Positions 21,000-64,000 of a stretch of 64,000 nt of DNA are shown in pieces. How positions within the stretch are numbered: the stretch's first letter is position 1; every line of letters begins with the position of its first letter. The translations under genes and the position numbers were made by a program. The stretch lies in the NCBI GenBank assembly GCA_963693365.1, contig CAVNZM010000023.1:9077-73076 (forward strand), read 5' to 3'. The stretch comes from Amoebidium appalachense (Eukaryota > Protista > Ichthyosporea). Under the pieces are notes generated by a model. That model was not told the origin of the DNA, made no database searches, and was given only the letters and a program-made list of their open reading frames with translations.

Positions 21000-21032
<33 letters not shown>

Positions 21033-21090
21033 TGCGTGTACGTGTGCAGGTATATGTGTAAGTGTGCTTGTGAGTGTGTTTGCGTGTGTC
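18310..21090. repeat. Complex (TG)n-based satellite with internal segmental duplications
   Basis: TG microsatellite matrix. Block ~19400-19750 recurs at ~20390-20750, and block ~18650-18725 recurs at ~20270-20342. Confidence 0.85.
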
Positions 21091-22094
21091 TGTACAAATC
21101 CGACGTTTCATGCAGGAAGGAAAACCCAAAACGCAGAATTTCTAACGCTTCATGGGGACACAAGCAATTACACACCTGAAATCCAAAAGCAGCGGCGGCG
21201 TTGGGTGTCACATTGACACATGTCATGTTGCCAGCCTGATCGGACACATCTGAAGCAACCTGAGGTAATGAGAACAAAAATCACTCCCTGGTTCACATAA
21301 AAACGTGACACGAGCACACACAGGCAGGTAGATAATGAAACGACGGCATACATTGGCTTCTACTTATACAGACTAAGATGCTCATTGGACTAGGCATGTA
21401 CCTGTGGTGCTGCCGAAGGTGCAACCAGCAGCAGCACAAAGAGCACGAGCGAGAAGACCACGCCCAACGCCTTACGCGGCGTTCCTTTCAAAAAACCCCC
21501 CATTGCTTCTATTAGTATCCGCAGTAAGTCGGTCGACCACTATGCAAAAACAAAACGTTTTCTTCAAGTTGCGCTCCGACGTCTGGTCAGGCTCCAAACA
21601 TCATGATCACGGAAACGGTATTTTTACCGTGCTTATGCTGTTCTTTTGCCAGGTATCAGCGCTAAACCGGAAATTTCGATTCGCAAATCAAAGTACACTC
21701 AAATACATTTAAAGCTCCCAACGAAATATTGTTCGAACCCATATTTACCTAAATAACAGATGTAATATAAACTAAATGATTCCCGATTTCGCTGACAGGG
21801 TAACAATTACTATCTAGTTGCCGCGCGCCTGGAAGCGAATCCAATGCGTTATCTCTCATTCCATTGACCCAGGAGCCAATCCAATCGAGTTTTTGAAAGT
21901 GGTTTTTGCCCATTGGACTAGTCACGTGGCCTGGTAACTTTGAGATCACACCACACCAAACCATCTCCGATCCGATCGCGATCAATCTATTTCCTACTTC
22001 CCACTTTTACCACTTAAAAATTGAAAAAGAGAAAAAAAAAAGAGACAAAACAAACGATACAGCATTACCCACTTCTAAGTGGGAAAGTGGCCAG

Positions 22095-22225
22095 AGAGAG
22101 AGAGAGAGAGAGAAGAGAGAGAGAGAAAAAAGCTAAGTCTACACGAGAGAGAGAGAGAGAAGAGAGAGAGAAAAAAGCTAAGTCTACACGAGAGAGAGAG
22201 AGAGAAAAAAGCTAAGTCTACACGA
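22095..22225. repeat. Three tandem copies of (GA)n-AAAAAAGCTAAGTCTACAC
   Basis: Direct inspection; lies at the host/virus transition. Confidence 0.85.
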
Positions 22226-22267
22226 GCTAAGTCTTGACCCGGGCAGGGGGGGGGGGGGGAGGGGGGG

Positions 22268-22442
22268 GGCAGGTGAGGCAGGGGGGGCACGTGAGGCAGG
22301 GGGGGCACGTGAGGCAGGAGGGGCAGGGGGGGCAGGTGAGGCAGGGGGGGCACGTGAGGCAGGGGGGGCACGTGAGGCAGGAGGGGCACGCGAGGCAGGG
22401 GGCACGCGAGGCAGGGGGCACGTGAGGCACGTGAGGCAGGGG
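22268..22442. repeat. G-rich 9/18-bp periodic repeat (GGCACGTGAGGCAGGGGG)
   Basis: About ten GCA(C/G)G(T/C)GAG units separated by G-runs. Confidence 0.85.
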
Positions 22443-22691
22443 GGCCGGGGGCCGGGGGGGGGGGGTTTATTTAGAAAATATTCACCAAACATATCGAGTA
22501 ACAACACAATGAAACTTTTACATATATATATATATATATATTGACAAGCCAAGTCGATATAAGAAACAAGCACAGAAACACATATGCATACTAATAGAAG
22601 CCGAATCTACTGTTAAGACTAAGAACACGCATACATCGACACTAATGACATGATTTACATCCGTGTAACGCATCGTAAAGCAACACAAAAC

Positions 22692-23850
22692 CTATTCATC
22701 AGGCTTTGACTCGTCTTCGATTCTCTTCTGCCAGGCCGCAATTTTAGCCTGTTTAGCCTGCTCCTCTGTCAATATATTCTTCTTTACCAGTTTACAAATA
22801 TTCTTGCAAGTATCCATATATTCAGAAAATGCACGTTTTCTACTCTCTGGGTTATTACAGTCGGCAATGTTGTTGGGTGCGGGCGATTGGGGCGAGGGAG
22901 CCGACTTAGACTTCTCAGACTTCTTGGGCTTAGACTTCTTGGGCTTGGAGTGCTTTTGAACACCGGCATTCGCGATCTTCCGAAGTGCCTCGGCAGTCCC
23001 GGGGGGGGGTCTTGCCCACCCATGGAATCGCCAACTTGCGGCCAGTGGTCTTACTGATCCCATTAGAGACGACGGGCTGAGCGACAGGCGGACGATCTTG
23101 AGTGGTGTCATCGTCAGAGGAAACATCGATCGAAGCGGTTTGGGGGGCGGCGATTGGATGGCGTGACTCGACAAAGATCGGATTGCCCAGTTCATCGAAC
23201 CGCGAGGCTGGCACATCGATAACCACGTTGTCCTGGCTCTCACGATTCTTCTGCATAAGACTGTAGAACTCTTTGAGACAGATAGCCCCCTTGTTGTCAT
23301 CGTTGTCATCGTTGTCATCGTCATCAGATGAAGACGAAGACGATTCGGTATCAGACCTACTACTGGAGCTCCTTGCCGAATTGTGATCACCCGCCTTAGT
23401 ATCATCTGGGTCTTGCTCGGCCATCTCGGTGTCGACATCTTGAGGCGGAACCATGGGGGCGACATCTTGAGGCGGGGCGATGGGGGCGGCACCCATAGAC
23501 TGGTCGAGATCACCGGCACGTGATTCGACATTCCGAGCAATCTTGGCGTTGCGGTTGCTACTCTTGCAGTAAGAAACGATGGCGGTCCTCAGACTCTCTT
23601 CGTCTTCTGAAGTGAAACCCCTCGGGTATTGCGGTATCCCTTCAGGTAACATACACTTGATAGCAGAAAGGATTTCCTTGAGCCCCTCGTCGTGGGTATA
23701 GTCGGCAAAAGTAGCCATCAGATCACGGACAACACATCCGAACCCAGCAACGCGCACAAGGTTTTTGACATTCCTAGGAATGGCAAGGGCCGCCTCGATT
23801 GCAGCACCATCAACCCCCAAGTCGTAGTCTCGAGAGCTAAGGTTAGACAT
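22692..23850 (-). CDS. Hypothetical viral protein (~385 aa), split by a +1 frameshift in the G9 run at 23001-23009
   Basis: ORF from ATG 23850 (MSNLSSRDY...) joins the 22692 frame (GTAEALRKIANAG...DESKPDE) if one base of the homopolymer is removed. Acidic/Ser-rich middle, Lys-rich tail. Confidence 0.65.
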
Positions 23851-24086
23851 GTTGAAAACAGCCTCGTTGAGAGCTAGAGTAGATGTGAAGAGAAAGCTGC
23901 GACTGTAGGATGAGCATACTGACACACACGCAACACTTCTTATAGCCAGGAGACACACAACGTAGCGACAAAAACAAAGTATCAAGAGACATCCATTAAT
24001 TGGACCGCCCGGTTTAAGATTGTTGTACACCAATCACAGAAGGAGGATAAAATAACAAAAAAAACAACAACAGAAATATCACACAT

Positions 24087-25261: not shown

Positions 25262-25347
25262 AGACTAGCCGATTGGCGTGTCTGTTACGAGACCAATAAT
25301 TTGTCGCTCGGGCGGTGTCGATATTTTCACAGCAATGATAAGCAGAA

Positions 25348-26328: not shown

Positions 26329-26632
26329 GACTAACCCATTATTTTACTTGCTATTATCGAGCATGCACGGAACGGGGAACAACACACAGATACAGATACA
26401 GTTTATATATAATGTTTGATGGATACAAACTTTGGCAGTGCTGGCAAACAGAAGCAAAGACTATGAACCGTCGACACATGTCGGTGTGCAATTACATATC
26501 TTAGTGCCAACACCGAAACCAAATGACAGAACACGGTGTGTAAATTGAATACTAATAAGCGAGCACGAAAGCAAAAATAGCCAGCTGTGTAGCTTCAAAT
26601 CGTTAGTACACCGGGCAATAGTAGCCCACACA

Positions 26633-28066: not shown

Positions 28067-28492
28067 ATGGGAAAACCAAACACCGAGATCTCCAATGTAG
28101 AGAGCTTGAAGGGCGTTTTGCGTGACTATGCAACCCTCCACGCACAGATCAAGGAGCACGCGGCACAGACAAAACCTGTTACCAAGAAAATGAATACTAT
28201 AAAGAAGGCAATTCTGAAGTACATGTCGTCTGGAAATGTCAGGTCACTCGAGCTTCCCACGAAAGACCTTCTGATTCTTCAAGAATCAATCAAAAAGCCA
28301 CAACTAAGCGAACAGTATCTCCGCCGTCAGCTTGAAACGTACTTCAAGGACACGAAAAAGGCCAACGACCTGGTATCCTTCCTGACTGCCATACCGGACA
28401 AAGACCTCGCCACAAAGCAATCACTCAAACACGTCGACAAGGACAACTATATAGAAACAGATTCCATCCTCGACGACGGCGACTCGGAGTAG
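28067..28492 (+). CDS. NCLDV conserved coiled-coil protein (DUF5760-like), 141 aa
   Basis: Pattern LRDYATLHAQIK...KKAILKYM...KKPQLSEQYLRRQLETYF resembles this giant-virus family (recognised by eye). AATAAA follows the stop. Confidence 0.65.
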   Translation: MGKPNTEISNVESLKGVLRDYATLHAQIKEHAAQTKPVTKKMNTIKKAILKYMSSGNVRSLELPTKDLLILQESIKKPQLSEQYLRRQLETYFKDTKKANDLVSFLTAIPDKDLATKQSLKHVDKDNYIETDSILDDGDSE

Positions 28493-36558: not shown

Positions 36559-38055
36559 TTACACACGGACGCCAATAAGCCGGCGGTCGATGGTATAGCA
36601 ACCAGCGACCCCAGATACTGCAGTGCAAGCCTCGGCCCCGAACTTTATGGCTGTAACTCGGGTGCTCTTCACCTTGCCGAGGATGGCCGTCATCGCGATG
36701 CCGAAGTCCCGCTGCACAGGCCTCTTGGACTTCTCGGGTGTGTTTTGGTCGAACCATATCTGGTATAGGCCGAATAGTGCACTGGGGGTGACTCTGTCGC
36801 CGTCTTCCAATAAAGGGGCACCATCACACCCGTTCTCGCGATGCAAGAGATCGTGCAGAAACTGCAGCTCCAATGGTCCACTGAGGTCCTGCAGCTCACG
36901 CTTGAGCGTTGTCATGGGGGGTGGTACCCTATTCGGGTCGGAAATGGGGGTACGCATGAGCCAGTGGTAAACATGCGCCAGGGCTGGGGCTCCGGGTTGG
37001 TACTTCTCGATAAGGGCGCGGAAGTACCTGTCGTCGCCAACTCGCTTGTCAGACACCTCCATGCAGGCGTACCGGCGGTCAGTACGGCTCACGGGAATTG
37101 GATGCTGCTCGTTGGACATCAAGATCCACCGTTCACATGACTTGACCTTGACCGCGTCGATGCCCTTAGACTCGTACGTCATCGTGTCGTCAGTAATGAG
37201 AGTCTTCAGATGGTTGGGGGTCCGGTGGCTCTTTCCGTAGGTGACCTCGTTGCACACAACTAACATCTTGAACGTTATGCCTATGTTGAACCGGGTGGCC
37301 AGGCGATCCTCCGTCTCCACCACACCGACCAGATCGTCGCCCAATACGTTTTGGATGATCTTCACGAACACGTTCTTGCCTGTGCCCTCGATGCTGCGCA
37401 TGAGCCAGGCCGATTCCGGTTTGCGCGCTGGAAACTGAAACATGTGCCCCAACCATTCGATGACATAGCGATATAGGCCGCCGTCTCCCGCACATATAAC
37501 CTCCTTTGCGTGATTCTTGAAGGGAGCGATGAGGGCCTCGTCGACCACAAAGGCGGGGTCGTAGATGAACTTGAATCCCGGAAAACTGTTGAATGCGCGA
37601 TTGTAGACGTCGGTGTAGGTAGGGTTACGCTCACCCGTTTTAGGGTCTGGGTCGCTCGGGTCAAAGACAATGCCTTTGTAGTACACCAGGATTCCATTCA
37701 CATCGTTGACGTATGTGGACCCCTTGTAGTAGTCAAGCTCCCCCTTTTCGTTGAAGTATTTGAATTCGTATTTGGACATCATGTCAATCGCCTTCTCCTT
37801 TGACCTGATCTGATGGACGAACCGACCGTCTTCAAAATGCTTCACGATATACACCTGGTCTTTGTTTGAGTAAGCGAGCAATGTCCGACAGAAAGTGTAC
37901 ACCTGGTCCATGTTCCAGATGTAATTGCCTATGTAGCTTGGAGGAATCCAGTTGTTGCAGGTGCCGGTGAGTCGTTCAAATTCCTCAAACGCAACACGGA
38001 GCCGTTCCCGATGAACATGGCACCCCAGCTCCAAATCCGAACGGATGGCCTCCAT
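36559..38055 (-). CDS. D5-like SF3 helicase (DUF5906/NrS-1 type), no evident primase domain, 498 aa
   Basis: WLGHMFQFP, SIEGTGKNVF (Walker A), LVVCNEV (Walker B), LKTLITD, ILMSNE (motif C), DRRYACMEVS. Confidence 0.88.
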   Translation of the reverse strand: MEAIRSDLELGCHVHRERLRVAFEEFERLTGTCNNWIPPSYIGNYIWNMDQVYTFCRTLLAYSNKDQVYIVKHFEDGRFVHQIRSKEKAIDMMSKYEFKYFNEKGELDYYKGSTYVNDVNGILVYYKGIVFDPSDPDPKTGERNPTYTDVYNRAFNSFPGFKFIYDPAFVVDEALIAPFKNHAKEVICAGDGGLYRYVIEWLGHMFQFPARKPESAWLMRSIEGTGKNVFVKIIQNVLGDDLVGVVETEDRLATRFNIGITFKMLVVCNEVTYGKSHRTPNHLKTLITDDTMTYESKGIDAVKVKSCERWILMSNEQHPIPVSRTDRRYACMEVSDKRVGDDRYFRALIEKYQPGAPALAHVYHWLMRTPISDPNRVPPPMTTLKRELQDLSGPLELQFLHDLLHRENGCDGAPLLEDGDRVTPSALFGLYQIWFDQNTPEKSKRPVQRDFGIAMTAILGKVKSTRVTAIKFGAEACTAVSGVAGCYTIDRRLIGVRV

Positions 38056-38138: not shown

Positions 38139-38657
38139 TCAGTCTGGATGTAGAGGTCTTCCATACTGTCCGTTACTCTTGGGATAGATAATATCTGACG
38201 GGCCCTGGGTCATGTTTGCCAGTTTTTGTGCGGCTGGAGGGACCACCAGCTCGGGGTGCGCGTTCAGCACATGGTGGTTGAGCGCGGGAGACCGCATAAA
38301 CGTACACTCGCACCCCACAGATGGACACCGAAGGGTACCACGCACCCGCCGCGTGCGTGTTTCATTCCCGGTATGGACCGCGCGGCGGTGCAGCCATAAC
38401 GCAGCGTGGGACGGGTAGTCAGCACCACACGAGTCACAGATGTACGGCCGCTCGCCCGTATGCATCCTGACGTGCACCTTCATGTGGTCGCTGCGCGCAA
38501 AGGTGGCAAAGCAGCCATTGTGGGGGCAGGTGTACGGGCGGGTAACCGAGTGCGTGGCGGCGTGATGTCTCTTCATGTTGGCTTTGATGGTAAAGGTCTG
38601 ACCGCAGTCGGGGCACGCAAAGACTTTCTTGGGTGTGGTGTTGCATGGAAGATCCAT
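38139..38657 (-). CDS. C2H2 zinc-finger protein (4 fingers), 172 aa
   Basis: CPDC..HHAATH, CPHNGC..HVRMH, CDSC..HRRAVH and CPSVGC..HVLNAH, with a canonical TGERPY linker. Confidence 0.92.
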   Translation of the reverse strand: MDLPCNTTPKKVFACPDCGQTFTIKANMKRHHAATHSVTRPYTCPHNGCFATFARSDHMKVHVRMHTGERPYICDSCGADYPSHAALWLHRRAVHTGNETRTRRVRGTLRCPSVGCECTFMRSPALNHHVLNAHPELVVPPAAQKLANMTQGPSDIIYPKSNGQYGRPLHPD

Positions 38658-44225: not shown

Positions 44226-45128
44226 TCACGATGTTGGTTCGAGTGGGGGGGGCAAGTTGGTTAATATTAACGATGCAAACCTCGGTGGTACGGCGTTTGC
44301 TATTAGAATATGCATTGCAATGATGTTTAGCGGGAGCTCTGTTATGTAGCCAGTTGGGAACGTCTGGACGCTCTCTTTTTCTGTAATAGTCATGTTGCGT
44401 ATATATCGAAACTCGGCATCCCATAAATAAAACCCTTTTGATGTCATCGTGAACAGAAGACCGTCAATTGGACGTGGGGCCCCCACACCATGGCGGTATT
44501 TCAAGCCCCCCTCTAACCACGCCTCCAAACGCCCCTGCGACAATGAACTGTTTGTTATCCATGCCGTGTCTCTGGACGTTATTACATCTTTGGGAGATGG
44601 GGTTTGAACGAAGGGCAATGTCGACGGATCCCACCCATCGTATGCAATGAGTCGTCTGCGGGTCTGGCACACTCCGTGGTCGGCCATGTTGACGATGACA
44701 TATGGCACTCCTTCTCGACCTAGAAGACTTCTTAGACGTGGGTGGTTGACCTCCTCCACGGAGAAACTGTCATATGGCAAGGAATCAAAGAGATCGAGCA
44801 TGTACAAAATCAGCTCCAATGTGTTGTCCTGGTCCCCCGCGTGATTGCGCGCGCTCGACAGCTCCTGGCACGGCGGGCTCGCATGCACGTGCAGGTGGTC
44901 GCCTGCCTCCATGGCCGGTACGGCCTCCATCAGCTCGCGCGCAAAGTCCTCTGCGGGCACGTCGCCTATGGTGCGCAGCATGTGCACGGCCCCGGGGTGG
45001 CGGGTGCGGTGCACCTCCAGCGCCACGTCCCAGCTGTCGACCGCCACCGCCACCACCGCACCCGCCTGTCGCGCACCCTCACTGAACCCTCCCGCGCCAC
45101 AGAACAGGTCGATCACGTACACCACCAT
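44226..45128 (-). CDS. C5 cytosine DNA methyltransferase (Dcm/HhaI-like), copy 1, intact
   Basis: Motif I IDLFCGAGG, IV SPPCQ, VI VEEV (ENV variant), VIII QTRRRL, IX QTFP, X IANAVPP. Confidence 0.93.
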   Translation of the reverse strand: MVVYVIDLFCGAGGFSEGARQAGAVVAVAVDSWDVALEVHRTRHPGAVHMLRTIGDVPAEDFARELMEAVPAMEAGDHLHVHASPPCQELSSARNHAGDQDNTLELILYMLDLFDSLPYDSFSVEEVNHPRLRSLLGREGVPYVIVNMADHGVCQTRRRLIAYDGWDPSTLPFVQTPSPKDVITSRDTAWITNSSLSQGRLEAWLEGGLKYRHGVGAPRPIDGLLFTMTSKGFYLWDAEFRYIRNMTITEKESVQTFPTGYITELPLNIIAMHILIANAVPPRFASLILTNLPPPLEPTS

Positions 45129-45259
45129 GCTTGTGGATGCCTCGGATTTTTTGTGGATGGATCGGGGCTTCTCAAAACAAAAAACAGCCAAATACAGACT
45201 TAATTACATCCAAGCCTGCTCACAACGCGTCCGTGCCCGGGTACGGGAACCCGACACCC

Positions 45260-46281
45260 TCACGCGTGGTCATGTCGCGGTACGTGTCGGGGTTGACCCG
45301 GGGCATCTGCATGGCCCCGGGCTTGAGACACCGGCGCCGCCGAAATTGTATTCAGAATTGCGCAGGCCATCGCCGGCGGGACTGCGTTGGCGATTAACGT
45401 TTCTCTGCTCTCTTTCGAAGGCACGCTTAGAGCCGTGATGTAGCCACATGGGAATGTCTGGAGCTTTTCCAATTCAGATGTTTGGATCCGTCTTATATAT
45501 TCGAAACGTTCGTTCCATAGGTAGAACGGACTTCGCACGACCGTGTAGAAATATGCATTGCTAGGTAGCGATTTCCATGTCGGAAACACCTGGGTTTTCT
45601 TGGGGATAGTAACTTCCATGTCGATGGTCCTTGTATTTTCCATTGGTCCCACTCCCTTGTCTCCCTCCATGTTTGCATTCGTATTGGGTAAATGCTCGCG
45701 GGGGTAATCCACGTAGCGTGCGGGGTTGGGTCTAGTTGGCTTAGTAGCGTCGGGGGCGAGGATCTGGGCATAGCGTAAGGGTTCCAACCGTCATATGCAA
45801 ATAAACGCCTACGTGTCTGGCATACCCCATACTCCCACATGTTCAGCACAATGTACGGCACGCCTTCCTCCGCGAACAGCTCTCTCAACCCGCGGTTGTT
45901 GACCTCCTCGATTGAGAAGCTGTCGTACGGCACGCAATCGAGGAGGTCCAATGTGTATCTTACCAACTGCAACGTGTCACCCACACGCCCCAGCCCCAGG
46001 CGCATCTCCGACAGCTCCTGGCACGGCGGGCTCGCGTGCACGTGTAGGTGGTCGCCGGCCTCCATGGCCGGCACGGCCGCCATCAGCTCGCGTGCAAAGT
46101 CCTCTGCGGGCACGTCGCCTATGGTGCGCAGCATGTGCACGGCCCCGGGGTGGCGGGCGCGGTGCACCTCCAGCGCCACGTCCCAGCTGTCGACCGCCAC
46201 CGCCACCACCGCACCCGCCTGTCGCGCGCCCTCGCTGAACCCTCCCGCGCCACAGAACAGGTCGATGACGTACACCACCAT
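45260..46281 (-). CDS. C5 cytosine DNA methyltransferase, copy 2, frameshifted at ~45590-45650 (pseudogene or assembly error)
   Basis: Motifs I-VIII are in the 46323 frame; FYLW..QTFP..IANAVPP are in the 45787 frame. N-terminal part is nearly identical to copy 1. Confidence 0.85.
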
Positions 46282-46368
46282 GCTTGTGGATGCCACTGAT
46301 TTTTTGTGAATGGAACAGGGCATCTCAAAACAATAAACACCCGAATCGAACTTTATAATACAGCCTGC

Positions 46369-48989: not shown

Positions 48990-49048
48990 TTTGTTTGGCG
49001 GGTGCACGCGTCTTTGCACGTAGAAAAAACAGCGTGATTCGAGAAACA

Positions 49049-49376
49049 TTTACGCGGCCGGCCGCGGTGATACGAGAATCAGACTTAGAAAAAAAAAACG
49101 AGTTTTATTTACGCGGCCGGCCGCGGTGATACGAGAATCAGACTTAGAAAAAAAAAAACGAGTTTTATTTACGCGGCCGGCCGCGGTGATACGAGAATCA
49201 GACTTAGAAAAAAAAACGAGTTTTATTTACGCGTGCCGCGGTGATACGAGAATCAGACTTAGAAAAAAAAACGAGTTTTATTTACGCGGCCGGCCGCGGT
49301 GATACGAGAATCAGACTTAGAAAAAAAAAAACGAGTTTTATTTACGCGGCCGGCCGCGGTGATACGAGAATCAGAC
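49049..49376. repeat. Tandem array A: six ~60 bp units with a 14-bp palindrome CGCGGCCGGCCGCG and an A-tract
   Basis: Unit tttacgcggccggccgcggtgatacgagaatcagacttagaaaaaaaaaacgagtttta at 49049, 49108, 49168, 49226 (palindrome deleted), 49281 and 49341 (partial). Confidence 0.97.
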
Positions 49377-49508
49377 GAGATACAGAAAAAGACGAACCCA
49401 GTTCGAACAGGCAGGGGTTATACATACAAACCCCAAAGACAATCAAATAACATATAACTCCCGAGCTCACTACACTCCACTACCACTTTGCTTACAACTT
49501 GTCTTTGC

Positions 49509-50696
49509 TTACAACTTGGGACCGACATAATCGCCAAAGGCGCGGAGGGTCATCGGCATCATGTACTCGAGCTCCTCCCATTCGGGGGACAAGGGGCCAT
49601 CGGCACGAACCACGTAGATAACGTTGTTGCGGTTAGTTCTGATGCCGGTGGCTTGGTACAACCATTCGAGGTAATCGATTTCCTCGGTGCTGCTGATCTG
49701 ACAACGAAAGTGCACGTGCCCGTAGTGTCGAAACCGAGGCTCGAACGTGCCCAACGCATGAACGAACTCTGCTCCCCAATGTTTACCGTTTTGAAAAACC
49801 CCGAGGAGGAAACGACCCCTGGCAGGCATGCGGTCATCAACCTGGTGGGGTTGCCACGCCGCAATCTTCCGGTGTTCGGGCATGTCTGATGCGAGGCTAG
49901 CCAGGGCATACGGTGCACACGACGCGAAGTATGGAATCGGCCCCCCCTTGTCGCGGAAAATTTCACCATTGTAGTGTGCACGGACGCCGTTCTCGTCGGC
50001 AGGGGGTAGCGGTAAGTTGATCCCCCACACCATTAAATCTTGCAAGCCAAAGAATTCATCCTCGCACAGAACGTTCCCAATGGCAAGAAGTTTGCCGTCT
50101 TCGCCGTGTGTACTCTTGGGCTTGGGTGCGGGCTGGGCTTTCTGGGGGGCACGGGGCTTTGGGGACTGGCACGGCGAGGCTGCTTGTTCGTCGTCGCGGT
50201 TCCCGATGAGAAGACTTGCCTGTTTGACAATTTCATCCAAATAGGCACCACATGAAGTCTCCGATCCTTCTTCCAAGTTCTCGCGGGTGCAGACGCATCC
50301 GAAACGCGCAAAACTCGTGCTTTTGGTTACGTTTTCGCGGTACTCGTCGCTCCGACCGACCCCGGTCAGTCGTGTCAGAATGATGGTGGAACGTTTGAAT
50401 ATCTGCTTTTCCTCCTCACTCGCCCAAGTGGTGATTTTGTCGGCGTGGAAACGGGCGATCAACTTCTTGATACCGCTCAACGACGCGGACTGGAGACACC
50501 CAACCCACTTGGTCAGAAGGTGCGGCGAGCAGCCAGCCGCCTCCGCCGCAATGGACAAATTGGTAAAATCCGTGTTGTCGATGAACTCGGACACGGACTT
50601 GTCGGCGTCGCCCTCCACCGATGCGAGGTAGCGCAGACCGCGGTGAATGCAATCTGGGTCAAACCTCTTGTAGTCTACAACGAGTTTGTTCGCCAT
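49509..50696 (-). CDS. Unknown viral protein, paralog of 51521-52927 (HAD variant of J-like motif)
   Basis: Shares RAHYNGE, PY.LA.LA.D, PA.GRFL.G and NN.IY.VRAD.PLS.EWEELE..PMTLR.F..YVGPK with the paralog. Probable start MANKLVVDY. Confidence 0.85.
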   Translation of the reverse strand: MANKLVVDYKRFDPDCIHRGLRYLASVEGDADKSVSEFIDNTDFTNLSIAAEAAGCSPHLLTKWVGCLQSASLSGIKKLIARFHADKITTWASEEEKQIFKRSTIILTRLTGVGRSDEYRENVTKSTSFARFGCVCTRENLEEGSETSCGAYLDEIVKQASLLIGNRDDEQAASPCQSPKPRAPQKAQPAPKPKSTHGEDGKLLAIGNVLCEDEFFGLQDLMVWGINLPLPPADENGVRAHYNGEIFRDKGGPIPYFASCAPYALASLASDMPEHRKIAAWQPHQVDDRMPARGRFLLGVFQNGKHWGAEFVHALGTFEPRFRHYGHVHFRCQISSTEEIDYLEWLYQATGIRTNRNNVIYVVRADGPLSPEWEELEYMMPMTLRAFGDYVGPKL

Positions 50697-51520: not shown

Positions 51521-52927
51521 ATGGCGCACCTCGACAGCTTCCTTCCTGATTTTACCCAGTTAGACGCGGAGTGTGCCCATCGGGGTTTCGGTTTGCTTGC
51601 CTCCCAATCCCCAACGTTCGAAGATGACGTGCGTCTGTTCCTGAAAAGCATGAAGCCGTCCGCCAGAATCCAAGACATAGCCGCTGAAGCCGGCAGGTCA
51701 ACACTCCTGTTCACCACCAAGTTTGCACAACTCCAGGCCTTAGACTCGGGCGGGATCAGGAGAGTTGCAAAGACTTTTCACCCGGACAAGCAGTCACCGA
51801 ACTTGTCCGCGGAGCTAAGCAAGGCGATGACGGACACCTACATCGTCCTCGGTCGCTTGTCGTGTGGAAAGAATGCCGAGACCTACATCGCTTCGGTGGA
51901 ATTTCACGAGAGTTACCTCCACTACGGTTGCGTATTCAGCCGCGCTAACCGCGAGAACGACGAGAAAGAAACGCGTTGTGGCCAATACCTCAAAGATTGG
52001 GTGGAAGGTCTTCAACGCGCAGGAAAGATTAACAACCACGGTTTGACACAGGACGCAGAGTGCATCACGATCACGGACACGGACACGGACACGGGAACGG
52101 AGACACCGGACTCGGACTCTGATGACACGGGCATACAGGACCACTCGGACACGAACAAAAACGTTCTTGCCATAGAGCCACCCATCACACACGACGACCA
52201 ATTCAACCTCCTGTCCGTCACGGAGGCAGTCAAGAAGAAGTCCGGTGGCAAGGAGGCTCGGAAGCACGCGGGTGTGTTGGTGTGGGGGGTCGACCGGGAG
52301 CTTCCCAAGGCAAACGAATGGGGAGAACGTGCACACTACAACGGCGAGTTTGTTCGCAAAAAAGACGACCCCATTCCCAAAATCGGCAAAGTGGGCGATC
52401 CCTATGTGCTGGCAACCCTTGCTGCAGACATCGAACACAAGCATGCTACCTGGCCATCCCACCTTGCCGACTCTCGTCTTCCCGCACTAGGACGCTTCCT
52501 TGCAGGGTTTCTCGACAAGCGTCGCACAGCCCCAAAAGTGTGGCCCCCACCTGTGCATTTTGCGCACGTGCAGATCCGTCTCAACTTCGCATTCAGAGAC
52601 TACGATCAACTCGAACCCTTAGTATACAATAGCAAGGACAAGACTACGATGGGCCACACCCGTTGGCTTAATACGTACGGCATTGAGCGCAACCAAAACA
52701 ACATCATTTACATTGTCCGGGCCGACAACCCCCTTTCAGTCGAGTGGGAGGAACTGGAGGGGAAGCTCCCTATGACACTGCGAGATTTCGCAAGATATGT
52801 CGGTCCGAAGGCAAAGCGCCTGGCCGCTCCCAGCGCCGAGGGCATGCAGGCCAGCAAGAGCACAAGGCGCAAACGGGAGGCCACCCCCCCCACCAAGCCA
52901 GCCAAGAAGGCCAGGAAGACCATGTAG
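51521..52927 (+). CDS. Unknown viral protein with J-domain-like HPD motif, paralog of 49509-50696
   Basis: GIRRVAKTFHPDK...AMTDTYIVL, acidic DT/DS linker, shared C-terminal domain and basic tail PAKKARK. Confidence 0.85.
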   Translation: MAHLDSFLPDFTQLDAECAHRGFGLLASQSPTFEDDVRLFLKSMKPSARIQDIAAEAGRSTLLFTTKFAQLQALDSGGIRRVAKTFHPDKQSPNLSAELSKAMTDTYIVLGRLSCGKNAETYIASVEFHESYLHYGCVFSRANRENDEKETRCGQYLKDWVEGLQRAGKINNHGLTQDAECITITDTDTDTGTETPDSDSDDTGIQDHSDTNKNVLAIEPPITHDDQFNLLSVTEAVKKKSGGKEARKHAGVLVWGVDRELPKANEWGERAHYNGEFVRKKDDPIPKIGKVGDPYVLATLAADIEHKHATWPSHLADSRLPALGRFLAGFLDKRRTAPKVWPPPVHFAHVQIRLNFAFRDYDQLEPLVYNSKDKTTMGHTRWLNTYGIERNQNNIIYIVRADNPLSVEWEELEGKLPMTLRDFARYVGPKAKRLAAPSAEGMQASKSTRRKREATPPTKPAKKARKTM

Positions 52928-53349
52928 GCATGTCAGACCTGCAACAAGACCATGTAGGCATGTAGGCAATAACGCTGGCGTTGCGTGGATGTGTGTGTGT
53001 GGTCATGGTATTGGTGATATTGCGTAAGGCTGCTACAGCGATGGCTATTTTTGCTTTCGTGTTCAACCATCAGTATTCAATTTACACACCATGTTCTGTC
53101 TTTTGGTTTCGGTGTTGGCAATAGAGATATGTAATTGCACACCGACATGTGTCAACGGTTCGTAGTCTTTGCTTCTGTTTGTCAGCACTGCCAAGGTTTG
53201 TATCCATCAAAAATATATCTGAATATCAAATGGAATACGTGGTCACGAATGTCCACCACAGCGCTGTGCGTTGTGTGTTGTGTTGTATGTATTGTCATGT
53301 GTATATGAAAATAAAGTATTTTCAGGTCCTTGTATTTTTTCGGTTTCGT

Positions 53350-54038
53350 CTTTTGAGTCTTTAAGGCTTTCGGCAAAACGCAACTCTTGCAAAGTCTTTC
53401 GGTTCCGCACCGCGGCCAACACGACTCTTGCAATTTTTCATTTTTCAGAGTCTTTGGGCTCCGCACCGCGGCCAACGCGACTCTTGCAATTTTTCTGAGT
53501 CTTTCGGCTCCGCACCGCGGCCAACACGACTCTTGCAATTTTTCATTCTTCAGAGTCTTTGGGCTCCGCACCGCGGCCAACGCGACTCTTGCAATTTTTC
53601 TGAGTCTTTCGGCTCCGCACCGCGGCCAACACGACTCTTGCAATTTTTCATTTTTCAGAGTCTTTGGGCTCCGCACCGCGGCCATTTTTTTCTGGTCTTT
53701 CGGCTCCGCACCGCGGCCAACACGACTCTTGCAATTTTTCATTTTTCAGAGTCTTTGGGCTCCGCACCGCGGCCAACACGACTCTTGCAATTTTTCATTT
53801 TTCAGAGTCTTTGGGCTCCGCACCGCGGCCAACGCGACTCTTGCAATTTTTCTGAGTCGCCCGCGGCACACGACTCTTGCATTTTTCATTTTTCAGAGTT
53901 TTGGGCTCCGCACCGCGGCCAACGCGACTCTTGCAATTTTTCATTTTTCAGAGTCTTTGGGCTCCGCACCGCGGCCAACGCGACGCTTGCAATTTTTCTA
54001 GTCTTTCGGCTCCGCACCGCGGCCAACGCGACGCTTGC
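53350..54038. repeat. Tandem array B: ~13 units of mostly 56/49 bp (GGCTCCGCACCGCGGCCAAC(A/G)CGACTCTTGCAATTTTT...)
   Basis: Unit starts at 53401, 53457, 53506, 53562, 53611, 53667, 53702, 53758, 53814, ~53859, 53904, 53960 and 54008. Confidence 0.97.
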
Positions 54039-56732: not shown

Positions 56733-56921
56733 CATAGAGAATGACACAGAACAAGCGCACGCCATCTGCTCCGGCACGGATGCAGCTCGCATACAGCAGC
56801 AGCGCCAGCATGGTGTCGTCCATTGCACGTATTTTTACCCCAAAATATAACTGCCCATGCCATTGCGTGCCTATAAAAGCCGCGTGCCCCGAACCAATCT
56901 TCATTCGCCCCCTTCTTAAAC

Positions 56922-58352
56922 ATGACCGACTACGCGATCTTCGAGGACCCCACCCGCGGCCCCCTCCACGACGTGCCCTTCGTGCCGCGCGAGTGCGCGC
57001 AGTACGATTGGTCCGAGAGTATGGCCGTCGACTACCTGCGCAGCGTGGTGGCTTGGATCAAGGGATCCTCGGCATACATCCTCAAGCAGTGGTCCGACGA
57101 ACGCCAACAGTTCGAGCACCGCATCGTGTCCAAGCGCGACGCGGTCGACACCCTCGGCAAGTTTCAGTTCACCATCCACTCGGACCGCGGCGCCCGTGTG
57201 GCAAAGTACACCGGTCGCGAGTACCTCAATGGCCCCGACATCCTGGTGTACGAGCGCGTCGTCTACGACCCCGCGGACCCCGATCCCCTGACCGGACGTC
57301 GCAGGTACACCACCGGCCCCTACCACGTCTTCAACCTGTTCCCTGGCTTCCGCCACCGCCCAAGCGACATGCCGTCGGAAGAGCGCGAGTCTCTGGCCGC
57401 GCCCTTCCTCGCGCACGCGCGCGACCTGTTGTGTGGTGGCAACGAGGTGCTGTTCGCGTACATGCTGACCTGGCTCGGGCATCTGTTTCAGTTCCCCGCC
57501 GCGAAGCCCGGCAGCGCGCTGCTGTTCGTGTCGCGCCAGGGAGCGGGCAAGAACGTGTTCTTCCAGGTCCTCACCGACGTCATCGGTGCAGAGCACACCG
57601 TCTACGTGAACCGCAAGGACAGGATCCAGAACCACTTCAACGCGCATCTCCAGAACAAGCTGCTCGTCATTGTCGACGAGGTGCTGTTCGGGAACTCGCG
57701 CGAGATCAACAACATCATGAAGTCGCACATCACCGAGTCTACTAACCTGGTCGAGAAGAAGGGTCATGACGCCCATACCGTTCGCTCGTGCGAGCGCTAC
57801 GTGCTGCTGACGAACGAATCGTTGCCCGTGTTGGTCGAGGCCAGTGACAGGCGCTACGCCTGCATGGAGGTGTCCGGTGAGAGGATCGGCGACACTGCCT
57901 ACTTCGGCTCGTTCGTCGCCCACCACGCCCAACCGAAGGCCCTGCAGGCCATTCACGACACACTCGTGCGTCTGCCCAACGTCCCCCCCGTGCTGCCCCC
58001 GCCCCCGATGACCGAGCTGAAGCAGGAACTGCGACAGGCAAACATGGGCGACGTCATGCTGTTCCTGCGCGACATCGCGTATGGAACAGACGGCTGCGAG
58101 GACCTGGCCATCGCCGACGGCGCCCACGTCACCACCACGGGCATGGCCGAGCTCATGCGCACCTGGGCCGCGCGAAATGGCCGCGACCCCGCGACAGTAA
58201 GTGTCAGGAAGCTGGGGTCCACCATGGGCAAGCTGTTCGGCGGGCGCACGAAGCGGCCGAGGCAGGATGTGGCCGTAGGCGGGGAGGGGGCGGGAGACAC
58301 GGAGTGGGTGCATGCGTACACGTTCGTACACGAGAAGGTCGTGGGGGTGTAA
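56922..58352 (+). CDS. D5-like SF3 helicase (DUF5906 type), paralog of 36559-38055, 476 aa
   Basis: WLGHLFQFP, SRQGAGKNVF, LVIVDEV, VLLTNE and DRRYACMEVS motifs; TATAAAAG 50 nt upstream. Confidence 0.9.
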   Translation: MTDYAIFEDPTRGPLHDVPFVPRECAQYDWSESMAVDYLRSVVAWIKGSSAYILKQWSDERQQFEHRIVSKRDAVDTLGKFQFTIHSDRGARVAKYTGREYLNGPDILVYERVVYDPADPDPLTGRRRYTTGPYHVFNLFPGFRHRPSDMPSEERESLAAPFLAHARDLLCGGNEVLFAYMLTWLGHLFQFPAAKPGSALLFVSRQGAGKNVFFQVLTDVIGAEHTVYVNRKDRIQNHFNAHLQNKLLVIVDEVLFGNSREINNIMKSHITESTNLVEKKGHDAHTVRSCERYVLLTNESLPVLVEASDRRYACMEVSGERIGDTAYFGSFVAHHAQPKALQAIHDTLVRLPNVPPVLPPPPMTELKQELRQANMGDVMLFLRDIAYGTDGCEDLAIADGAHVTTTGMAELMRTWAARNGRDPATVSVRKLGSTMGKLFGGRTKRPRQDVAVGGEGAGDTEWVHAYTFVHEKVVGV

Positions 58353-58494
58353 GAAGCTGCCCCTGTGATCGAAGGGCCGGGTGGAATCCATCCTCAAATT
58401 CCTTGAGGCTGGCCTCCATTGATCTTGAGGCCGGCTTCCAGGCCATGGGTATAAAGGCTGGGCCTACCGCAAAATAAAACCTGTACCTAGATTG

Positions 58495-58920
58495 ATGGCC
58501 ACTCTCGCAATGCAGCCACCAGCGTACAACACGATTGCATCCCCCGCTCCGCAGTCCTCCCGGGCCCGCGTGGTGATGCGCAACGGGCAGGTGCTGGAGG
58601 AGGGGGAGGTGACGCCGATAAACGACGACGAGGGTAAAGTCCTCACCTATGGGGAAGTGCGTAACGGAGGAGAGCTTTGGGTGAATGTCACCTACATTGC
58701 TAAATCCAGCGGGAAGACGTGGAGCGATTGGTTTCGGCTAGATGGCACACACGCACTCTTAAATGAAATCGAGAAGAAAAGGAGTCCTGCAGCGAGTCCT
58801 GGGATTGTCCAGGACTCCTCTGATTGGTCGGTTGTCGATTCGGCTCGCATAAACTACAAGGGGAAAGACTGCGAGCGACTCCGCGGTACCTGGGTCTCAT
58901 TGGATTACACCGCCCAATAA
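58495..58920 (+). CDS. Short/truncated KilA-N domain protein
   Basis: WVNVTYIAKSSGKTWSDWFRL...RGTWV pattern; stops right after RGTWV. Confidence 0.7.
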   Translation: MATLAMQPPAYNTIASPAPQSSRARVVMRNGQVLEEGEVTPINDDEGKVLTYGEVRNGGELWVNVTYIAKSSGKTWSDWFRLDGTHALLNEIEKKRSPAASPGIVQDSSDWSVVDSARINYKGKDCERLRGTWVSLDYTAQ

Positions 58921-58978
58921 AGCCGTTTACTGTGGTTGTGTAGCGTTTACTGTTCGCGCACTCCGTGCGTGTCCGTGT

Positions 58979-59975
58979 CTACCCCAACAGCGTCGCGGCC
59001 AGCGACTCCGAGAACTCCTCGCGCTTGCTGATGTCCCGGAACCCGCTGATTGCCGGCAGGTTGTCCATGCCCGCGCTGTGGATCGTGGGGTCCGGTCGGA
59101 TCTGCAGGTTGCCGTTCTTCTTGTACACGGCGGGGGCCGCCACGTTGCGCGGCCGGCTGGTTGCCGCCAACACCTCCTGTGCGGACAGTTTGGCCACGCT
59201 GCTGCGTGCCCGCGGCTTCATCTCGCTCCCTTGGAACAACCCCGTGCCCTGGATCTTGGATATGGCGTCCATTGTGTTGTTGCTGACGTCCGGCCCCACC
59301 GTGTGCACGCTGTGCGTGAGCATGGGATGCACGCTGGGCCTCGTCGCCGCTCCGATTAGCCCGCTGGGTGTGCCCGATGGCACCACCGACGTCGGCTGCA
59401 GCGCCTTATGCGCCGGCGCTGGTCCCGGCACCACCACCTGCTGCCCCCCCCGCGTTGACAACCGTGGGTGCATTGGGCACGGGCGCGGCAGGCGGCGGCG
59501 CGGTTTGCTGTTGCGCCGCCGCGGGGGCGGGCGCGGGCGCGGGGACGGGCGCGGGCGCGGGGACGGGCGCGGGGTCCGCCATGGCGAAGTCGTAGAAGTC
59601 TGCGGTGGCATAGTGGTCATCATAGCCGAGCGCGTCATCGTCGTAGCCAGCTCGTGCGTACCCAAAGGCCGCGAGCGCGTCGTCGTCGTATGCTAGCGCG
59701 TAGTCGTCGTCGTCGTCGACCATGCCCTGGTTTCCATAGGCCAGGGCCGTATCCTCGGGTTCATAGGTCTCGGAGGCCAGCCCGTCCACGTCTGCAAGCG
59801 CGGTATCCTCATCGAAGGGGCCGTTCGCCCAGTCCTCGGTGTGCTGGTGGTGGTGCGAATCATCCTCGTACTCCAAGGAACCGCAGCCGCCATATGTCGG
59901 CTTGGTGAAGTAGTACACCCCCGCAGCCAGGAGGGCCATGTAGATCAGTGATCGGTCCATCGTCCCGGAGTTCAT
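58979..59975 (-). CDS. Putative minor capsid protein P11-like membrane-anchored protein; +1 frameshift in C8 run 59444-59451
   Basis: N-terminal hydrophobic helix LIYMALLAAGVYYF, acidic and Pro/Ala repeats, and C-terminal KNGNLQIRPDPTI resembling the NCLDV P11 C-terminal motif. Confidence 0.6.
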
Positions 59976-60057
59976 ACGGGGTGTATAGAAAAAAGCCCGA
60001 CCGCGGCAAGCCAAGGTATAAAAAGCCCCGTCAATCCACATTTCACGCCAGAACACA

Positions 60058-60843
60058 ATGCTCGTCAAGACCGTCCAGGTGAACACGTTCAAATGCGCAG
60101 TCGACAGCATCAAGGACATACTGGGCGAGGTCACCGTCGTCTTCAGCCCAAAAGACGGACTGGTCCTTCCGGCCGTGGACAACGCGAAGAAGGCATTTGT
60201 CCACATGCACTTCCCCGCGGACCGCTTTGAGATATTCGACGTCGCGGAGGAGTTCCGAGCCACGTTCGAGATTCAGAATCTCTACAAGATCGTCAAGAAC
60301 GCAGCCGCTCACAAGTTTAACAGCATTTCCTTCTGCTCGGAGGACAATGGCCTCAAGGTGAAGATGGAGACGACAGACGACGCGAGTGCAATTACCTACA
60401 CCATGACCCTGATAAAGGAGGAGAGGCCACTGTTGGTGACGCCGTCGCTCGACTACGACTGTGTCTTCGACATCCAGGCTCACGAACTCGCGAGGTACCT
60501 GCGCGACATCCAGTCCGTCTCGAACGTCGTGTGCATCAGCGTATCCGACGGCTGCATGAGGCTGCGTGCGGTAGGTGCGCTCGGCAAGTGTCGCATCGAC
60601 ATACCCGAGCGCAGCCAGGACACCCTGAAAATCAGACGATGCAAGTCGTCTGGCGTGGTCTTCGTCAAGGCGCACGACGAGAAGGTGAAGGCCAAGTACA
60701 TGGTGAAATATCTGGCCGCGTTCTGCAAGGGTGCTTGTGTCAACAGTACGGTCAGGATACACGTGGCAAACAACAAACCCATCAGATTCGAATATATCGT
60801 CAGCGATTTGGGCGTCCTCGCATACCACCTGTGCCAGATGTAA
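60058..60843 (+). CDS. PCNA: Proliferating cell nuclear antigen (viral sliding clamp), 261 aa
   Basis: PCNA length and motifs FKCAVDSIKDIL, GLVLPAVDNAKKAFVHM, KYMVKYL..FCKG and KPIRFEYIVSDLGVLAYHL; intronless. Confidence 0.92.
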   Translation: MLVKTVQVNTFKCAVDSIKDILGEVTVVFSPKDGLVLPAVDNAKKAFVHMHFPADRFEIFDVAEEFRATFEIQNLYKIVKNAAAHKFNSISFCSEDNGLKVKMETTDDASAITYTMTLIKEERPLLVTPSLDYDCVFDIQAHELARYLRDIQSVSNVVCISVSDGCMRLRAVGALGKCRIDIPERSQDTLKIRRCKSSGVVFVKAHDEKVKAKYMVKYLAAFCKGACVNSTVRIHVANNKPIRFEYIVSDLGVLAYHLCQM

Positions 60844-60863
60844 GAATTATCCATGCCTGTGGC

Positions 60864-63800
60864 ATGAGCAGGCCTGGCTATATCGTCGTAGACCGATACA
60901 ACCACAATAAAGTCGTGGCCGACGCGTGGCCATGTGCCGAAGACCCATCCCGTTTTCGAATAGACCCCCGGGTCGACTCCCCGGTATCCAAAGACGCCAT
61001 CGAGCAGTCTGTGTCCACGGACCAGCAGTCCTCGCACACCCGCTTCCGCATCCGCGATCCCATGTTCGAAGACCCGCCCACAGAACCACGCGCACGCACG
61101 CACGAGACGTGGTGGGAGCGGTTCGTGGAGACCCGGCCTGACGCCGACGTGGCGGCGGAAACGCCGCACTTCCAGATGCACAGGAGCCTCATGGGCAAGG
61201 TGTACTCGAGAACCGCGTCGGCGGGCTACGTCAAGCTTGACGGCGTCACGGACTCCCGCGGGCAGGACCTCTTCAGGGAAGTCGCCCGCGGGCCAGCGCG
61301 GAAGAACGAAAGAGGCACGGTCCTGCCCCCCAAGCTTAAACCCCTACATCAACTCCCAGAGCCGCATCAGCCCGATCACCCCGAGCGCATCAGGACAGTG
61401 TACCGGTACATCGCCGACGCCGAGAAGGCCCATGCAGACAAGGTCAAGAAGTTCCTGAAAGAAGAGTCAGGGCGACCGGGCGTGGATACGACTGCCCTTG
61501 GAATCCTGGACGACGACGACGACGACAACGAGGAGGCCGGTGAGCGGAACATGGTCAACTCGCTTGCCATCATCGCCCCCGGACTGCCGCTGCCCGAGTA
61601 CGAGGAGCCAGTCGGCGACAGCGTCACCGAACGGAACTTTGCGTACAAGCACGCGATCCACACGCTGATCCAGGAGCGCGCGAAGATGGCAAAGGAGCTC
61701 GCGAAGGCCGTCCGCGACGGCCGCATCTCCAAGGCATGGAGCAAGGACGCCCTGATGGCGCACACGCAGAAGGTCGCGTTGGCCCTCGCCGAAAAGCCCC
61801 ACAACGCCGGCATCAGGCCCCTGCTGGAGAGCCTCGCCGACGGCAGGGAGCTCGAACGCCCCCCTCGAGTCCAAAGGCGAAGCCGTCAAAGTGTTCATGG
61901 ACTTCAGGAGAGCCCGCACAGAGAACGCCGTCGACGACGACCTCGCCGCGTCGCGTGAATCGGTCCTCCGCGAGCCAGCCCGCACCCTCCGCCGCGCTGA
62001 GTACTCGGACAGGGACAAGGCCAGAGACTTCGAGTCGGCCGCGAAAAGCTTGGGGTTGGCGCCGTCGGTCGCCAGCAGGGCGGTCACGGACTTCACGAGG
62101 GTCCTGGGGCCCGCCCTCGCTCCATTGCAGGCGGCAGGGAAACCAGCCGCCGGTGCCGTGCGTGGCCGCGCCGCGGTCGCACCTAATACAACCACGGACA
62201 TCACCGACTCCGTGTGCGGGCTCGTTTACGTGTCGCCTGAGCTCAGGGAGCTCCGCTTCCGTCCGCTGGCGTACCTGGTCGTGCGCATGGACCGCTACGT
62301 CCCCCAACTCATGCTGGTGGCCCTCCACATCGCCCGCCCAAACGAGAAACCGCGCATCGTCAAGAGCTCGGCCTCGTTTGTGGGGGTGTACCATCTTGCC
62401 GCAGCACCAGCTCCATCACCCCCGCCCGCGCCGCTGGGCTTCTACCTGCTCGAGCTGCAGAAGTTCGAAGCCCTTCTAAACCCCGAGACCCCATTCATAG
62501 TCAACGCCCCGTCCACCGACGCCCCGTCGCCAATCCGCACCGTCATCTTCGAGCCCGTCCCCAACCGTAACATCAGGACATCGGAGGACCACTGGGTCCT
62601 CACCCTGCACGCCGACCGCCGCTGCGACATGGACCCTCCCGACAGCCCCACCGGGGCGCTGTGGATGCTGACTGACACCGGCGCCAGCCTGCTGCTGCTA
62701 CGCGATGGCCCCGAAGCGGTCTGGTACCCGGCGGATGCCGCAACCACCCCGGGCGTGGTGCGCGCGCGTGCCATCCACCAGGTCAACCCCACTGTCGGCA
62801 GGGTGGTGAGGGGGAAGGCGTACGACCAGGACGTGCGCGACGGCGTGCTGCTGGCCTACCTGCGCGGCGAGAAGGCCGCAAAGATCGCCCGCGTCATGAA
62901 GATCTCGCCGCAGACCGCGCGCAGGTACATCGAGCGCGCCATCAAGGGGCAGTACACCTCGCGCCAGGGCGTGAACATCTCCGAGCTCCACCAGCGCACC
63001 CAGAAGCTGACAGAGGAGCAGAAGATCGCCCTCTACCAGGTCACCACAAAGGTCCCGAGCGTCTCGAGCGAGAAACTCCTCGAGGTCTACAACCGCCTGT
63101 ACCCGGACGCAAAATTGTCCGTGTCCGTGTCCACGCTGAACAAGTGGCGCCGAAAGATGGGCCTGTCCTACAAGCGTGCCGAACAGGCCCCCACCAACAC
63201 CTTTGTACGGTCCATCGCCGCCGCCACCCAGTTCTTCGAAGTCGAACGCCTTCCGTTCCTCCAGAACCACCGCAAGAACCTCGTCTTCATCGACGAGTCC
63301 TCGCTCTACCTCGACGAGACCCCCGGCATGGTCTGGGGCCGCCGCGGTGGCCACCACCCCGCCCCCCAGACCAAGCTGACCGGGATCGGCACCAAGCTGG
63401 TCATCGCCGTCGGGTTTCCGTACGAGAACGCCGCGGGCAGCCTCACCGGCCTGGTCAAGTGCATGATTCTCAGCCCGCGTCCGATCAACGACTACCTCTA
63501 CAACTACAGGCACCTGGCGCCCGGCGGCGCCGAGCCCAAGGCCGACATCGACGCCAAGACGCTCGTCCCCGACTCGTTCGACGGCCGCGCCTTCTATCTG
63601 TTCCTCGAGCACGTGCTGGGGCGCGACCCCGCCACCGACGACGCCATTCTGTGCATGGACAACGCCCCCCAGCACAATGCAGAGGCGTTTCTGGACCAGA
63701 TTACCAGGCTGTCGCTGCGGAAGAGGTGGCGCGTCCAGTGGCTGCCCCCGTACAACTCGAAGTTCAACGTCGCCGAGCTTGCCATTGGCTTTGTCAAGCA

Positions 63801-64000
63801 CTACGTGCGCAAACGCTACCCAAAATCTTACATGCACCTGCGCATGCTGATGAAGGAGGCGTGTGCAGCCCTTACAAGGAACCCCCAGCACGTCGTAAAC
63901 TGGATGAAGAAATGCGGGTACGGCCTGTCGGTCAACATCACAAAGAACTCGAACATCCGCGTCGACAGGCTGGGCCAATTCGCACCGGACGGCACTGTTT
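60864..64000 (+). CDS. Large protein (>1000 aa, 3' partial) ending in an IS630/Tc1-mariner transposase; +1 frameshift in C6 at 61859-61864
   Basis: The frame starting at 61861 is open to the window end and is not in the ORF track. It contains HTH (KAYDQDVR..KIARVMKISPQTARRY), SVSTLNKWRRKMGLSYKR, VFIDES (D 63292), MDNAPQH (D 63658) and LPPYNSKFNVAE (E 63775). The join to the 60864 ORF is inferred. Confidence 0.8.

Follow-up and report, generated by a model that had tools for sequence, protein, structure and literature searches.

Ordinary Tc1 transposases are proteins of about 350 amino acids (aa), flanked by terminal inverted repeats (TIRs) and a TA duplication. In Teratorn, as given in the available text of its description, the transposase gene lies internally and the TIRs stand at the virus ends (PMC10175614). 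The accessible part of another report names a tyrosine recombinase for phaeoviruses and a presumed retroviral-like integrase for punuiviruses (PMC13236599). The IS630-Tc1 genes of Punuivirus are described as selfish elements, and its GEVE as having 6-bp target-site duplications, in the portion available of a preprint (10.1101/2024.09.03.611062), and these two features together indicate that IS630-Tc1 is not the integrase of that virus. For Amoebidium, the available text presents GEVE integration as apparently stochastic and the inserts as incomplete (PMC11244446).

Here we analyzed a 64-kb stretch of Amoebidium appalachense DNA, referred to below as the window, in which a gene beside a PCNA sliding clamp gene encodes a very large protein built around an IS630/Tc1 core. 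The family of such proteins is apparently undescribed: no paper on a 1400–1600-aa IS630/Tc1 giant-virus protein was found in the literature searched, in which few subscription titles were covered, and the portions available of that literature, including PMC11890097, 10.1101/2025.04.19.649669 and 10.64898/2026.10.13.758929, contain no description of such a protein.

The likely viral insert and its large gene

The window likely carries a giant-virus insert. An approximate junction of host and viral DNA was placed at 21000..23000 from a shift in repeats and CpG, with repeat-rich, CpG-poor host DNA to its left and an intron-poor, gene-dense element to its right. Simple repeats made up a share of as much as 0.33 per kb before position 23000, and beyond this position their share did not exceed 0.02 in 40 of 41 bins; the CpG observed/expected ratio was 0.52 in bases 1–21000 versus 1.12 from about 23000. 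This shift in composition and repeats at 21–23 kb points to a viral element joined to host DNA, and the large gene lies about 38 kb from the left junction. Domain searches identified a D5-like primase/helicase gene (DUF5906; 56916..58352, plus strand; Pfam and NCBIfam), a diverged D5-like paralog (36559–38055, minus strand; Pfam) and a KilA-N domain gene (58495..58920, plus strand; Pfam), and the element also encodes YqaJ, T5orf172, AAA ATPases and C5 methylases. Scans of 23, 8 and 20 proteins from the window revealed no gene for a capsid, an A32 packaging ATPase, PolB or VLTF3.

Several other features of the element were observed. At 44226–46323 (minus strand) there are two C5 DNA methylase genes in tandem, of which the second is split over two frames; a DUF5760-like protein scoring under the cut-off is encoded at 28067–28489 (plus strand), and a C2H2 zinc-finger protein at 38142–38657 (minus strand). 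Tandem arrays at 24046–25279 (134-nt units), 49048–49436 (about 60-nt units) and 53380–54038 (49/56-nt units) are possibly origins or homologous repeats. A paralog pair is present (49509–50696 and 51521–52927), the two D5-like genes lie in opposite orientation, and the insert may have been pieced together from at least two viral segments. At 58979–59984 (minus strand), two overlapping frames resemble one gene broken at a C-run at 59444, another allele of which is present in sequencing run X12; we take its C-terminal motif to recall a giant-virus minor capsid protein, an identity that found no support from Pfam or Atlas. TATA-like boxes stand 35–45 nt ahead of the PCNA, KilA-N and D5 starts (56880–60040), which suggests host nuclear transcription.

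The large gene begins with an ATG at 60864, 20 nt past the stop of the PCNA gene directly 5′ of it (60058..60843, plus strand; Pfam PCNA_N and PCNA_C), and runs off the window end. Neither a TATA box nor a repeat was found in the 20-nt spacer (60844..60863, plus strand). The 5′ part of the gene (60864..61858, plus strand; about 331 codons), recognized by profile and pairwise matches to relatives, encodes a region with a conserved motif, an acidic tract and a helical block. It is followed by a C-run (61859..61864, plus strand), a polymorphic site that is a frameshift in the window copy, as seen from the alleles across runs and from a frame switch in third-position GC, which is 0.82 in the upstream frame until C-run 61859 and 0.83–0.90 in the downstream frame thereafter. 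The upstream frame overlaps the downstream one (61756–63999, plus strand), which comprises 748 codons, is open to the window end and contains the motifs FIDESS, CMDNAP and NVAELA. In the downstream frame 352 codons precede the HTH start GKAYD at 62812; about 315 of these lie 3′ of the C-run and make up the second half of the N-terminal region (61865..62811, plus strand; P0068 match and profile), which totals about 650 codons once the upstream frame is joined. The HTH DNA-binding region of IS630/Tc1 type (62812..63180, plus strand) was located by Pfam HTH_23, the NCBIfam IS630 match (stretch 364–540) and alignment, the first HTH being called by Pfam and the second inferred from the alignment. 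Next come the DDE catalytic domain (63286..63921, plus strand; Pfam), with an insertion between its two Asp, and the start of a C-terminal extension (63922..64000, plus strand) that aligns with relatives, its frame open at the window end. In total, the window holds at least about 1045 codons of the large gene.

What the initial annotation had observed in this gene was confirmed. D63292, D63658 and E63775 form the triad of an IS630/Tc1 HTH-DDE module about 650 codons into the gene, at exactly the positions it had given, and Pfam DDE_3 (43.2 bits, cut-off 28.6) and HTH_23 (27.6 bits, cut-off 24.6) both scored above their cut-offs; with NCBIfam transpos_IS630 the window protein reached 92.1 bits, below the cut-off of 100. 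The proposed spacing of 38 residues between the second Asp and the Glu (D2-E) was borne out, as was an insertion between the two Asp (D1-D2), which are 121 residues apart versus 78–106 in ordinary-length hits (335–437 aa; four with placeable motifs among 14 tried). The long N-terminal region in the same frame was also upheld, as were the continuation past the usual CGY end (26 residues beyond KCGY, to the window end) and the viral codon style, the codon use of the three gene parts correlating with that of four neighbouring viral genes at r 0.82, 0.84 and 0.90. By its sequence, the large protein would be expected to work like an IS630/Tc1 enzyme.

Full-length relatives and natural alleles

A phmmer search of 1.84 billion representatives gave 59 hits, four of which were set off from the rest by E-values of 1e-71 or better: P0004 (1619 aa), P0005 (1533 aa), P0006 (1390 aa) and P0007 (738 aa, starting inside the core). 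A second search added P0067 (1432 aa) and P0068 (1403 aa), giving a family of five full-length relatives (1390–1619 aa) and one partial (P0007), each recorded on a single contig, which for P0004 is 22 kb long. An N-terminal region of 560–606 aa precedes the HTH in the five full-length relatives, placing its start at residue 560–607, and C-terminal to KCG[YF] the relatives carry 411–625 more residues; about two thirds of the protein is non-transposase sequence. The DDE triad is intact in all seven family sequences, the window and six of six others, and the HTH region is kept in every member covering it. In the relatives D1-D2 is 133–164 residues, and D2-E is 39 in five of six and 41 in one. Identity among the five full-length relatives is 43–58% in the core, 22–37% in the N-terminus and 23–34% in the C-terminus; the higher core identity, together with the triad in all seven sequences, suggests long retention of catalysis within a large protein.

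Three pieces of the window match P0068 in order: the upstream piece (P0068 68–240, E 2e-9), the middle piece (P0001 139–209 against P0068 383–452, E 1e-5) and the core (P0068 606–1018, 49% identity). A profile of the five relatives' N-termini gave 27.8 bits for the upstream piece (best of 200 shuffles, 3.3) and 11.3 bits for the middle piece (best of 200 shuffles, −0.5). A quick tree, which took in 42 of 63 rows, placed the seven core sequences in one clade (SH-aLRT 100) with the window as sister to P0068 (95). A word-indexed search with the window core found no match among 7998 candidates of 411–1309 aa, and among forms of <764 aa (7998 candidates scored) there was no stand-alone N-terminal domain, the two matches being a Daphnia sinensis fragment and a chromodomain protein. 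Thus relatives keep the fusion on which the initial annotation had laid weight, since the five full-length relatives share the N-terminal region, the DDE core and the C-terminal extension; judged from these alignments, the fusion is a family trait.

The N-terminal region had no Pfam match under E 0.1 in any of five members, no PDB relative (best E 0.99) and no usable Atlas match. For the two extensions taken together, Pfam, PDB and Atlas likewise gave no match. AlphaFold models reached pLDDT 33.8 and 35.1 with no usable fold, and a fold search with the pLDDT 35.1 model gave TM 0.10 or less, a value uninformative at that confidence. No TnpB-type/Fanzor Pfam domain was fused in P0004–P0007, the four relatives scanned whole; a separate gene of this kind may lie downstream.

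Members of the family occur in the likely viral insert of a eukaryote, in the assemblies of two Daphnia species and in contigs from metagenomes or sequencing runs. The P0068 cluster includes fragments from assemblies of D. pulex and D. sinensis, and in D. sinensis its annotation is divided among three consecutive loci (GHT06_003798–003800) of a 183-kb scaffold; the D. pulex scaffold is 35 kb long. The gene-bearing scaffolds may be Daphnia DNA or may come from an associated protist. According to the available text, Amoebidium, which is rich in such inserts, came from freshwater arthropod cuticle (PMC11244446), and D. pulex is listed with a giant-virus core gene in the accessible part of another study (PMC5294986).

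The next-closest sequences form a second IS630-like group (P0008, P0010, P0012, P0013, P0015, P0016, P0024, P0050, P0056 and P0078; 573–1403 aa), which was not found in the literature searched. Its members carry the D1-D2 insertion at the same place as the large family (hhalign 99.95%, 392 columns), and the group is a possible, weakly supported sister of that family (SH-aLRT 91). It differs in having little or no N-terminal extension, a D2-E distance of 42–48 residues and a chromodomain, which the large family lacks. The D1-D2 span in the second group is 173–376 residues, the chromodomain is C-terminal and present in six of the ten proteins, and P0016 has a SAP-like match; P0015 comes from a 295-kb contig.

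The state of the gene in other samples was followed in sequencing runs, 20 of which are listed as containing the window stretch wholly or partly and 16 as containing half or more. In runs compared at 90%, the uninterrupted allele at C-run 61859 was present in X1, X4 and X10 (three samples) and the window allele in X7; X12, from the same sample as X7, contains both alleles, each at about half depth. The C-run frameshift is a natural allele, and the uninterrupted form in three of the four runs indicates a single gene of at least about 1045 codons that is intact in most samples compared and broken here. Allelic changes in the large gene are weakly biased to synonymous ones (6 of 13, expected share 0.245, p 0.07), as counted on 13 of the 17 listed changes with the four on minor contigs left out.

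These data bear on two further possibilities, the in-frame landing of an ordinary 350-aa transposon within a viral gene and a long frame produced by an assembly artefact, both of which are now highly improbable. The core does begin at GKAYD, as ordinary-length relatives do, and two further breaks in the window copy (59444 and the second methylase) could speak for an artefact. However, five independent full-length proteins carry the core at a similar position behind a homologous N-terminus, and short-read contigs from four samples are near-identical to the window, so that an in-frame landing or artefact is largely refuted by the relatives' fusion and the run contigs.

Resident gene, transposon or integrase

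The synteny with PCNA singled out in the initial annotation is kept in diverged copies. In runs compared at 80%, a diverged X12 contig links the 3′ part of PCNA to the N-terminus of the large gene, the diverged PCNAs of X17 and X19 are followed by a comparable spacer and ATG, and a diverged copy in X20 runs past CGY, as in the window; this evidence consists of short matches in diverged copies, with 24 of 79 loose ends listed. Unbroken contigs of X1 (59900–64000) and X4 (59934–64000), which extend 837 and 635 nt past the window, show no depth step at the PCNA boundary, and the flat depth and single contigs over this boundary argue against a near-identical multi-copy transposon.

No TIR linked to the gene's 5′ side was found within the window, and no repeat was shared between 60700–64000 and the rest of 21000–64000 beyond scattered 12–14-mers. 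There was no second near-identical copy of the gene in the window and no multi-copy signal in the runs compared, nor any empty site among the loose ends listed (12 of 14; 24 of 79). At the left junction no TIR or TA duplication marking an element end was identified, and the right end lies beyond the window. The ordinary-transposon outcome weighed in the initial annotation thus did not emerge: no close TIR, second near-identical copy or empty site was seen in the window and the runs compared, and the fusion is present in relatives. The kept fusion, the PCNA synteny and these negative results support a resident gene of the element over a transposon inserted in frame. Of the earlier proposal of a domesticated DDE recombinase, the part concerning residence is supported by fusion and PCNA synteny. 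The label "DD38E" has to be given up as a family signature in view of the spacing in relatives. The gene shares with IS630/Tc1 transposons a D-D-E domain with family motifs and an HTH region, internal here; it lacks two defining features, a stand-alone protein of about 350 aa and dispersed near-identical copies or empty sites, and is therefore not classed as an IS630/Tc1 transposon.

The only long inverted repeat is 188 nt (26407–26593 and 53032–53218, 90% alike, 26 kb apart). Its candidacy as a pair of element TIRs was dropped: the large gene falls outside the two arms, and each of these follows closely on a gene in sense orientation. A shared 3′ element, or a scar left by an inversion, is the likely explanation.

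A larger selfish entity deserves consideration, although we regard it as rather unlikely: an IS630/Tc1 transposon family of large size that rides in giant viruses and moves only its own element, the ends of which may lie further out or have decayed, with PCNA perhaps as cargo or favoured target. Virus-borne Mariner elements are known and can be single-copy and carry cargo genes, according to the accessible part of their description (PMC3627910), and several IS630-Tc1-Fanzor families occur in Punuivirus in the portion available of that preprint (10.1101/2024.09.03.611062). The enlarged DDE insertions of the second group and its chromodomains suit a chromatin-targeting transposon, and the 3′ flank of the large gene lies beyond the window, so that distant ends are possible. 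This account is opposed by the viral codon use, by the 20-nt gap between PCNA stop and ATG with its layout kept in diverged copies, and by the same lack of linking repeats and of multi-copy signal.

The resident-gene features would also suit a domesticated viral DDE nuclease with another job, host insertion proceeding by other means. Such a protein may resolve or trim genome ends in replication, cut host or rival DNA, or take part in recombination with PCNA; the tight PCNA linkage, the nearby D5 helicase, the large non-transposase share of the protein and the absence of an end signature from the tests above all accord with this. We nevertheless consider it improbable, since all covering members retain both HTH region and triad, as end-specific strand transfer expects, and a canonical PIP-box pattern occurs in one of the eight sequences scanned.

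The reading we put forward, tentatively and at slightly below an even chance, is that the virus has domesticated an IS630/Tc1 enzyme, which likely serves to integrate its genome. It is favoured by the location of the gene in a host-joined element, the ORFs scanned in 22–60 kb having yielded no other integrase and no tyrosine recombinase. Against it weigh the missing end signature, the selfish IS630-Tc1 genes and 6-bp duplications of Punuivirus, the apparently stochastic insertion of Amoebidium GEVEs, the lack of capsid, packaging ATPase, PolB and VLTF3 genes in the scans, and a bias of allelic changes to synonymous ones that is only weak. By analogy, we infer that the enzyme may be active, virus-owned and acting on viral genome ends. 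A more specific version, that a giant-virus lineage made an IS630/Tc1 transposase into a dedicated integrase of 1400–1600 aa beside PCNA that places whole genomes into TA sites, is plausible but is held with a little less confidence. In such a scheme, an ancestral IS630/Tc1 transposase would have been captured into a viral gene, losing its close ends. Inverted ends flanking the complete viral genome would be bound by the HTH region; their cleavage and strand transfer to TA sites of the host would fall to the DDE domain, the role that piggyBac plays for the herpesvirus in Teratorn. In targeting, virion loading or regulation, the extensions would take the place of factors from the host or the element, and the window allele would be unable to yield the full-length protein.

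If this integrase reading is true, active integration of giant viruses would have a named enzyme, one that takes another route than the phaeovirus tyrosine recombinase, and a Tc1-type enzyme would be able to move >40 kb. The family is a concrete candidate for the entry of giant viruses into host genomes, a step that in phaeoviruses apparently involves a tyrosine recombinase, and the reading predicts complete gene-bearing elements with TA-flanked inverted ends. Should it prove not to be an integrase, it would still be an IS630/Tc1 family whose proteins are four times as large as usual and include about 1000 uncharacterised residues.

Comparison with known systems

Proteins of the IS630/Tc1/mariner group (DDE_3 PF13358, NF033545) resemble the large protein in the order of HTH region and D-D-E domain and in their motifs. 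The large family differs in being about four times longer, with its core in mid-protein, D1-D2 of 121–164 and D2-E of 38–41 residues; here, moreover, there is no close TIR or multi-copy signal, and the score is below the NCBIfam cut-off. Virus-borne Mariner/Fanzor elements of PGv-1 type share with this locus an IS630/Tc1-type transposase in a giant-virus genome and may be single-copy. They have a 5′ transposase region of about 1 kb, TIRs, TA duplications and separate cargo ORFs (Fanzor, nuclease, methylase), whereas here a single ORF of 1400–1600 aa is present, no TIR was seen and Fanzor is not fused.

The Amoebidium GEVEs are alike in being intron-poor giant-virus inserts in a methylated eukaryote genome that are polymorphic among isolates, and according to the available text they encode PCNA, D5 primase, DNA methylases and unspecified integrases (PMC11244446). 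The portions searched of its main text and supplement do not mention a large IS630/Tc1 protein. Teratorn, in the available part of its description, differs from the present case in having a piggyBac enzyme, a herpesvirus and a fish host, in being a fusion of elements and not of protein domains, and in that end TIRs are shown there; it nonetheless offers a model of how the large protein may work, namely a DDE transposase that is encoded within a large DNA virus and works on the termini of its entire genome (PMC10175614).
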